From: Firmicutes bacterium CAG:582
Lineage (GTDB): Bacteria; Bacillota_I; Bacilli_A; RF39; UBA660
Assembly (NCBI GenBank): GCA_000435515.1
Contig: FR884179.1
Coordinates: forward strand, 2,780-66,779
Length of the DNA stretch: 64,000 nt
Direction: 5' to 3'
Shown: piece after piece, positions 23,847 through 24,578 of the stretch
How the letters are laid out: each line of letters begins with the position of its first letter
How positions within the stretch are numbered: position 1 is the first letter of the stretch
Translations under genes and position numbers: made by a program
Notes under the pieces: generated by a model
The model's database searches: none
What the model was told of the DNA's origin: nothing
The model's input: only the letters and a program-made list of their open reading frames with translations

Positions 23847-24578
23847 TTATACATATCTATCTTCAAGTTTTAATCTATCTGCTAAAGTTACAATGAATTC
23901 TCCATTAGTAGGTTTTGACTTATCACAATCAACAGAATTTCCAAATAACTCCTCCATATAGTCATAATCACCTCTACTCCAAGATATTTCAATTGCATGT
24001 CTTATTGCTCTTTCAACTCTTGAAGACGTTGTTTCATAACTTCTAGCAAGTCTTGGATATAACTCTTTTGTTATTGCTCCCATCATCGATGTATCATTAT
24101 ACATCATTTCGATTCCATCTCTTATATAAGAATATCCTTTTAAATTAGAAGGTATTCCTAAATTATGTAACATATCTGTTATTTTTAATTTTATAGTATT
24201 ATTACTTTTATTTTCTTTAAAATATATTGATGCAATAACTCTTTCAAGTTCACTGCAAGAATAAGGTTTCTTTAAGAAATAATTTGGTTGATATGAATTT
24301 ATTTGCATCATCATATCTGGACTCACATATTCACTTGTAATAATAACTTTTCTATTTATACCTAGTTCTTTCATCTTTGAAAGAATTAAACTACATAAAC
24401 ATCCACTTAGTAATAGATTGATAACTAAAACATCATAATCTTCAGTTATTGAAGACATTGCTTCATCCCTATTACTGATTGCTTTTACCACATTGACACT
24501 ACTAGAACTACTGAAATACTCCTCTACTGCATTTATATGATTAACATCTTCGTCAATCAACATTACACGTATCGCCAT
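23847..24578 (-). CDS. spo0A: sporulation master regulator Spo0A (atypical receiver domain)
   Basis: The C-terminal Spo0A DNA-binding domain is unmistakable: [36 protein letters not shown]. The N-terminal receiver has DVLVIN where the family has DVLVLD. Confidence 0.9.
   Translation of the reverse strand: [243 protein letters not shown]

Follow-up and report, generated by a model that had tools for sequence, protein, structure and literature searches.

Endospore formation is taken to be triggered universally by phosphorylated Spo0A, and comparisons of sporulation initiation among the Firmicutes turn mainly on whether kinases act on it directly or by way of a phosphorelay. Here we describe a spo0A-type gene from Firmicutes bacterium CAG:582 in which the residue at the site of the phospho-acceptor aspartate is asparagine. 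The gene lies at 23847..24578 on the minus strand of the window, by which we mean the whole 64,000-nucleotide stretch that was analysed (contig FR884179.1, positions 2,780 to 66,779), and it encodes a protein of 243 amino acids comprising a receiver and a Spo0A_C domain. Our reading, to which we assign a probability of roughly 0.6, is that the protein is the Spo0A orthologue of uncultured, AT-rich (~26% GC) gut Bacilli, and that its effector domain reads 0A boxes while its receiver is an aspartate-less pseudo-receiver, independent of phosphotransfer and responsive to protein level together with a non-phosphoryl input. Sporulation entry in these bacteria is probably not dependent on textbook His-Asp phosphorylation.

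The closest described system is canonical Spo0A, as represented by Bacillus subtilis (P06534) and Geobacillus stearothermophilus (1qmp/1dz3 and 1fc3/1lq1). The two-domain architecture and the receiver fold are common to canonical Spo0A and the protein described here. Further points of likeness are an effector domain of 50% identity with an intact recognition helix ([12 protein letters not shown]), putative 0A boxes in the gene's own promoter with the 10-bp phasing of the tandem sites in 1lq1, and the presence of sporulation genes nearby. The protein differs in carrying Asn for Asp56 and Glu for the second pocket Asp, in a receiver that is only ~20% identical, and in a very short interdomain linker (243 versus 267 amino acids in total). 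It also falls under the cut-off of TIGR02875, the NCBI equivalog model of Spo0A, has a CtpB-like S41 peptidase rather than SpoIVB as its neighbor, and contains a serine run that is specific to its clade. Lacking the acceptor Asp and scoring under the equivalog cut-off, it is therefore treated here as a variant and not as a plain member of the Spo0A family.

Receivers without an acceptor aspartate are known from other regulators. Such pseudo-receivers are common, and their activation mechanisms are largely unknown (PMC12632262). In a survey of aspartate-less receivers, Asn is the second commonest replacement of the acceptor, and RitR of Streptococcus pneumoniae, with Asn53, functions without the residues of the acidic triad; neither the survey text that was read nor the literature searches gave a Spo0A-type example (PMC4395418). 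RitR resembles the present protein in its PF00072 fold, its Asn acceptor, its Lys-Pro and part of its switch, and its fusion to a DNA-binding domain (PMC4395418; PMC12632262). RitR-type receivers differ in that their output domain is of the OmpR/PhoB type and not Spo0A_C, and their biology and lineage are also different.

Two further systems show development being directed by regulators that depart from the standard scheme. In B. subtilis, the sad67 allele of spo0A has an altered receiver and turns on genes of early sporulation with no need for phosphorylation (Ireton et al. 1993, summarised in PMC4689505). Alleles of this type are laboratory-made receiver deletions and not natural variants, and they are insufficient on their own for efficient sporulation in rich medium (PMC4689505). 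In Streptomyces, BldM and WhiI are orphan response regulators of sporulation-type development whose activity departs from the canonical phosphorylation paradigm and is controlled by a heterodimer partner (PMC4125116); they differ in belonging to an unrelated phylum, in having a NarL/FixJ-type output and in serving another form of sporulation. Literature searches found no published description of an Asp-less Spo0A, and comparative studies of sporulation genes score spo0A only as present or absent (PMC10868615; bioRxiv 10.1101/2022.02.25.481979). Set beside these systems, the protein is Spo0A-like at its DNA end and aspartate-less-receiver-like at its signal end.

The open reading frame begins with ATG, preceded by a ribosome-binding site (aaaggaga), and its translation contains all of the motifs quoted in the initial annotation of the sequence ([25 protein letters not shown], LKKPY and [36 protein letters not shown]). 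The C-terminal half, which that annotation had already assigned to the Spo0A type, is recognized by Pfam as the Spo0A_C domain for DNA binding and transcription activation (PF08769; E 4.3e-39, 133 bits, model coverage 1-104/104) at residues 133-236 (23871..24182, minus strand). In a phmmer comparison the effector domain matches PDB entry 1lq1 at 3e-39, and in Foldseek the effector half superimposes on the Spo0A effector structures 1fc3 and 1lq1 with template modelling (TM) scores of 0.84-0.92 at 50% identity. Most of the effector domain, including the recognition helix, does not vary within the clade.

The receiver (REC) domain, read here as an aspartate-less pseudo-receiver, spans residues 2-120 (24219..24575, minus strand). 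Its match to Response_reg (PF00072) is a bare pass, at 32.8 bits against a cut-off of 30.2, and a custom hidden Markov model (HMM) built from 48 canonical Spo0A receivers scores it at 66 bits. The AlphaFold2 model gives the receiver a (beta-alpha)5 fold with a predicted local distance difference test (pLDDT) value of ~90 in this domain and 83 overall. In Foldseek, the receiver half aligns with the Spo0A-N structure 1qmp at TM scores of 0.85-0.88 and ~20% identity.

The acceptor position was located by pairwise alignment, by profile and by structure prediction. In the phmmer alignment, the segment 'dilllDiim' of G. stearothermophilus Spo0A-N (1dz3) pairs with 'dvlviNlll' of the query, and a MAFFT alignment with B. 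subtilis Spo0A again sets Asn54 opposite Asp56. The custom HMM places its conserved D on N54 with the highest posterior probability and its DD pair on D9-E10. In the AlphaFold2 model, strand beta3 consists of residues 50-54 and Asn54 closes the strand, like the acceptor Asp; residues 55-60 contain no Asp. All four approaches bear out the initial claim of an Asn at the D56 position. The profile alignment to a broad Spo0A set that had been proposed as a check puts Asn54 in the acceptor column and places no Asp there, and a misalignment hiding an Asp is ruled out by the phmmer, MAFFT, canonical-receiver HMM and AlphaFold2 secondary-structure results together. The codon is AAT, at 24417-24419 on the minus strand (att on the plus strand). 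Public assemblies contain the identical protein in 729 indexed blocks, mainly from human gut metagenomes and including Hadza samples.

A protein search yielded 120 close relatives at 53-100% identity, and residues were counted over 68 non-redundant clade members. Separately, one genome per GTDB species was scanned with a clade-specific receiver motif, which gave 20 species. These are uncultured metagenome-assembled genomes (MAGs) from the human, rabbit, mouse and ruminant gut, with the label 'Bacilli bacterium' or, for one of them, 'Erysipelotrichales'. The record titles of the Bacilli-type loci L017, L020, L022 and L026 read 'uncultured Muribaculaceae bacterium', which looks like a MAG mislabel. 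Among the four clade members that carry a protein name, NCBI calls P0054 and P0107 'response regulator' and P0335 'sporulation transcription factor Spo0A', and JGI calls P0080 stage 0 sporulation protein A.

The acceptor residue is Asn in 53 of the 68 proteins and Asp in the other 15. Across the 20 species the codon is AAT in 15, AAC in two and GAT, encoding Asp, in three. The Asp-less acceptor is a clade-wide trait and not the property of a single genome.

The remaining residues of the receiver show which parts of the canonical machinery are kept. The D9-E10-D11 codons of the beta1-alpha1 loop lie at 24546..24554 (minus strand), as placed by the clade alignment and the custom HMM. D9, the first pocket Asp, is present in 68/68 proteins and D11 in 59/68. 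Position 10, which in canonical receivers is the second Mg2+ ligand, is Glu in the query and varies among E, N, S, G, A, Q, D and H in the clade. The initial statement that the acidic pocket is in place is thus right for D9, and fails for the second acidic position, which is Glu here and hypervariable among the relatives. The accompanying statement on the Thr/Ser and Lys positions holds: Ser82 (T86 in Spo0A) and Lys104-Pro105 (the K108 position) are each found in 67/68 proteins. Tyr100 is invariant (68/68) and Phe101 is present in 57/68, so that the conformational switch keeps its residues (Ser82, Tyr100/Phe101 and Lys104-Pro105).

Two further features of the receiver are restricted in their distribution. 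The first is a run of serines, S23-S27 (YFSSSSSV), in the alpha1-beta2 loop (24498..24512, minus strand); in the clade alignment S25-S27 are conserved in 64-66 of 68 proteins, and the alignment comparison found no such run in canonical Spo0A or in the other Asp-less lineages. The second is a set of three cysteines, Cys60, Cys62 and Cys108, encoded on the minus strand at 24399-24401, 24393-24395 and 24255-24257; their conservation is limited to the human-gut subclade (proteins >=79% identical to the query), and they flank the old acceptor pocket in sequence. These cysteines might form a redox or metal site.

The history of the acceptor was followed on a neighbour-joining tree rooted with six Spo0A proteins of the canonical type, in which DD, D, T/S and K are all present. 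The basal members of the clade have kept Asp and have already lost the second acidic residue. Two large subclades are mainly Asn, and Asp-bearing proteins are nested within Asn-bearing ones; P0069 (Asp) and P0061 (Asn), for example, are 90% identical. By Fitch parsimony on this tree, Asp and Asn have been exchanged at least 6 times, and the second acidic position has changed at least 18 times. The closest neighbors on the tree are canonical Spo0A proteins from MAGs of other Bacilli, a placement that agrees with vertical descent. Positional orthology with these canonical relatives was not shown, as the gene context of P0125 differs (pgk-tpi-spo0A-gpmI) and the contig of P0124 is too short.

Selection was estimated as the ratio of nonsynonymous to synonymous substitution rates (dN/dS) by the Nei-Gojobori method, using 10-11 species pairs per domain. 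For the receiver the ratio is 0.04-0.30, and for the DNA-binding effector domain it is 0.007-0.10. The receiver is a functional module under purifying selection in which the identity of the acceptor residue is unconstrained, and decay of the receiver is ruled out by the dN/dS values and the invariant switch residues. Toggling between Asp and Asn in a receiver that is under selection is expected if phosphorylation of the Asp is no longer the input. The retention of D9, Ser/Thr and Lys-Pro, the hypervariable second acidic position and at least six Asp/Asn swaps together indicate a pseudo-receiver. The direction GAT to AAT may in addition have been favoured by mutation pressure at 26% GC. The phosphorylation-independent control put forward in the initial annotation appears, from the Asp/Asn toggle and the degenerate second acidic residue, to be the best-supported reading of this evolutionary pattern.

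Loss of the acceptor is also seen outside the clade, in unrelated Spo0A lineages. When 1.84 billion cluster representatives were searched with a profile, 1839 proteins matched at E <= 1e-30, and the best 150 of them were aligned to the canonical receiver HMM; this sample is biased, being ranked by similarity to the profile of the query clade. In the 119 proteins with a scorable receiver, the acceptor is Asp in 101, Asn in 8, Glu in 7, and Ser, Cys and Gly in one each. Of the top-scoring Spo0A cluster representatives in this sample, ~15% thus lack the acceptor Asp. One of the Asn-bearing proteins, P0157, sits in a canonical xseA-xseB-dxs-recN-spoIVB-spo0A locus, and another, P0146, shares the pgk-tpi-spo0A-gpmI context with the Asp-bearing P0125, so the acceptor Asp has been lost independently in orthologous spo0A loci. 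The metagenomic proteins P0121, P0122, P0123 and P0126 have no receiver and consist of 3-4 tandem Spo0A_C domains by Pfam, an architecture that could bind tandem 0A boxes without one.

The upstream region of the gene bears on the DNA end of the protein. Four 0A-type 7-mers (TTCGACA, TGTGACA, GTTGACG and ATTGACA) lie at 24658..24694 on the minus strand in a 10-bp register with 3-nt spacers between them, and the first of them, TTCGACA at 24688-24694, matches the 0A box perfectly when read on the gene strand. A putative promoter element, the -10-like hexamer TATAAT within tatactataat, is found at 24619..24624 (minus strand) and is conserved in 20/20 species. In 21/21 related loci, the distance from the end of every NTCGACA box to the -10 hexamer downstream is exactly 33, 43, 53 or 63 nt, and TTCGACA is perfect in 19 of these 21 loci, with one mismatch in L020 and L024. 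These predicted autoregulatory boxes are kept despite ~50% divergence of the protein. Their phasing is helical, as for tandem Spo0A sites, which argues for a DNA specificity and an autoregulation that, judged from the promoter sequence, would have been retained. The 5' leader that separates the ribosome-binding site from the -10 hexamer (24579-24618; loci L008-L028) contains an invariant TAGCAGT in 20/20 species despite ~50% protein divergence.

Taken as a mechanism, our reading would run as follows. His-to-Asp phosphotransfer would not activate the Asn54 form of Spo0A, and its activity would depend on its amount, as governed by positive autoregulation at the phased 0A boxes of its own promoter. 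The receiver would read a non-phosphoryl input. Candidate inputs include a partner protein, Ser/Thr phosphorylation of the Ser run by the Ser/Thr kinases encoded nearby, the ClpC-like ATPase encoded next to spo0A and, in the human-gut subclade, Cys60, Cys62 and Cys108. Spo0A would then turn on a reduced sporulation programme that includes spoIIAA, the sigF-like gene and others. A broader statement is that a widespread clade of human and animal gut Bacilli has a naturally Asp-less protein as its sole Spo0A, as other uncultured Firmicutes do independently, one of them with the canonical recN-spoIVB-spo0A locus; that sporulation entry is uncoupled from His-Asp phosphotransfer; that the receiver is repurposed to sense a partner, the Ser run, redox or metal, or ClpC turnover; and that the autoregulated level is the switch. 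This broader statement is offered tentatively, at slightly less than even odds.

Several points weigh against the reading of a phosphotransfer-independent Spo0A. The match to TIGR02875 runs end to end and reaches 183.8 bits, under the 200-bit cut-off of the equivalog. All members of the clade are uncultured and known from sequence alone. The analysis covers the window and related loci, and elsewhere in the genome there may be a second canonical spo0A, sporulation kinases and Spo0E-type phosphatases. The conserved D9-x-D11 could form a shifted metal site, and phosphorylation might persist in those clade members that have Asp. Perfect 0A boxes (TGTCGAA) are not significantly enriched across the window: 6 were found where 3 would be expected, and a count of 6 was reached in 9 of 100 shuffles. 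Finally, Asn can deamidate to Asp in some receivers (PMC4395418).

The last of these points leads to an alternative in which activation remains covalent and is cryptic or relocated. Asn54 might be deamidated and then phosphorylated, another residue might take the phosphoryl group, or Hanks-type kinases might act on S23-S27. We consider this unlikely, although it draws on several observations. Deamidation of an acceptor-site Asn to Asp has been reported for one receiver (PMC4395418), and D9, D11, S82 and K104 are all kept. The Ser run is specific to the clade and nearly invariant, and the window encodes a PASTA Ser/Thr kinase and a PP2C phosphatase in addition to a second, small kinase-domain gene. 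The latter, at 13341-14021 on the minus strand, encodes a 226-amino acid Pkinase/RIO1-like protein and lies inside a cluster for glycosyltransferases and polysaccharide synthesis. Asn-Gly is a deamidation-prone context, whereas the residue that follows Asn54 is Leu or Met and not Gly. Similarly, CheY D57N is reportedly phosphorylated on Ser56, whereas the residue that precedes Asn54 is Ile, Val or Leu and not Ser. In the AlphaFold2 model, the Ser run and the active site are on opposite faces. Moreover, if an Asp were needed, GAT is only one transition away and is present in close relatives, and the free exchange of Asn and Asp itself speaks against cryptic phosphorylation.

A second alternative, which we think about as improbable, regards the protein as a relic or a repurposed regulator. 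Sporulation would be on its way out or already gone in this lineage of reduced genomes, and an Asp-less Spo0A would be kept for other purposes such as the control of growth-phase or surface genes. Many non-spore-formers do have Spo0A (bioRxiv 10.1101/2022.02.25.481979). In related reduced orders of Bacilli, namely Erysipelotrichales and parts of RFN20 and RF39, sporulation is predicted and the sporulation gene sets are heavily depleted (PMC10868615). The window offers some further support. A spoIIAA-like STAS gene (60108-60440) abuts a SigF-like sigma gene (59494-60108), the pair occupying 59494..60440 on the minus strand, and the SigF-like protein is short, at 204 amino acids. No spoIIAB was found between the two genes in the window, which bears out the missing spoIIAB and the short sigF of the initial annotation for this gene pair. 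The SigF-like and SpoIIAA-like proteins score far under the NCBIfam cut-offs of their families, and spoIVB does not adjoin spo0A.

The decaying sporulation programme suggested in the initial annotation is, however, not supported. The spoIIAA-like gene retains the phosphorylatable Ser motif 'IDSVG'. The spoIIAA and sigF-like genes are intact in the window, as are spoVAC, spoVAD and spoVAEb (57793..59461, minus strand) and a gerA-type germinant receptor operon (41521..44836, plus strand) that encodes GerA, GerAC and a GerAB-like permease. Three proteins of the window, encoded at 7299-8339, 43886-44836 (the third gene of the gerA operon) and 56542-57741, are each found with identical sequence in 58-153 assembly blocks. 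Both domains of Spo0A are under purifying selection, the effector being nearly invariant, and the predicted autoregulatory boxes have been conserved over the divergence of the protein noted above. A perfect TGTCGAA box at 60476-60482, just upstream of the spoIIAA-like gene, points in the same direction and is given little weight; the site can presumably also be read as a sigma-H -10 element.

Other features of the window are of a more ordinary kind. A T-box leader (RF00230, 100 bits) at 47418-47606 on the minus strand precedes a tyrosyl-tRNA synthetase gene, and it is the only match of the Rfam scan of the window. At ~31.7 kb, some strains (L002, L004, 3310-4490) have an additional extracytoplasmic function (ECF)-type sigma factor gene and a 238-amino acid gene inserted between genes that adjoin each other in the window, an instance of strain-level variation.

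The genes around spo0A bear on a third alternative, namely that the protein is a paralogue: an extra Spo0A-like copy with a degenerate receiver, while a canonical, phosphorylatable Spo0A encoded elsewhere runs sporulation. This is very unlikely in our estimate. Some Clostridia do have two or three spo0A paralogues (bioRxiv 10.1101/2022.02.25.481979), and the genome scan was directed only at the clade-specific receiver motif. The gene order at the locus, orf382 - orf177 - CtpB-like S41 peptidase - spo0A - ClpC-like ATPase - orf274 - cysS, is also not the canonical recN-spoIVB-spo0A arrangement. Immediately upstream of spo0A, a CtpB-like PDZ and S41 C-terminal processing peptidase gene (24720..25910, minus strand) holds the slot that SpoIVB (S55) takes in canonical loci. 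On the other side, the gene for a ClpC/ClpA-like AAA+ ATPase of 606 amino acids (21982..23802, minus strand) starts 44 nt past the spo0A stop, as it does in every species of the clade; it may be co-transcribed with spo0A and have a role in Spo0A control. It is followed by an unannotated open reading frame of 274 amino acids and then by cysS.

Non-canonical as it is, this arrangement is stable across the clade, with one locus per species genome in the 20 species found by the receiver-motif scan. The ClpC-like gene adjoins spo0A in 20/20 species and the CtpB-like peptidase gene in 19/20, the exception (L017) having less than 500 bp upstream of spo0A; the remaining genes of the neighborhood are present in every locus whose contig is long enough to include them. 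The effector is as conserved as in orthologues, and the nearest tree relatives are canonical Spo0A proteins in a vertical-looking pattern. The contigs of relatives extend to ~1.4 Mb, which suggests small genomes, and Asn-bearing Spo0A occurs in the orthologous loci of two other lineages. As for a base error in sequencing or assembly by which GAT was read as AAT, a single transition would suffice, and it is nonetheless rejected with a negligible residual chance, because the identical protein is held by 729 assembly blocks from independent studies and Asn occurs in 17/20 species with both AAT and AAC in use.

We return, then, to the reading of a selected, Asp-less Spo0A. Several proteins of the clade fall under the Spo0A cut-off and are named 'response regulator', and surveys of sporulation in gut MAGs that rely on annotation may therefore misclassify such lineages. 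If the reading is true, a conserved and selected Asp-less Spo0A in abundant gut bacteria would mean that the phosphorylation step is dispensable in nature, and these proteins would provide natural sequences for studying how a receiver gates its effector domain.

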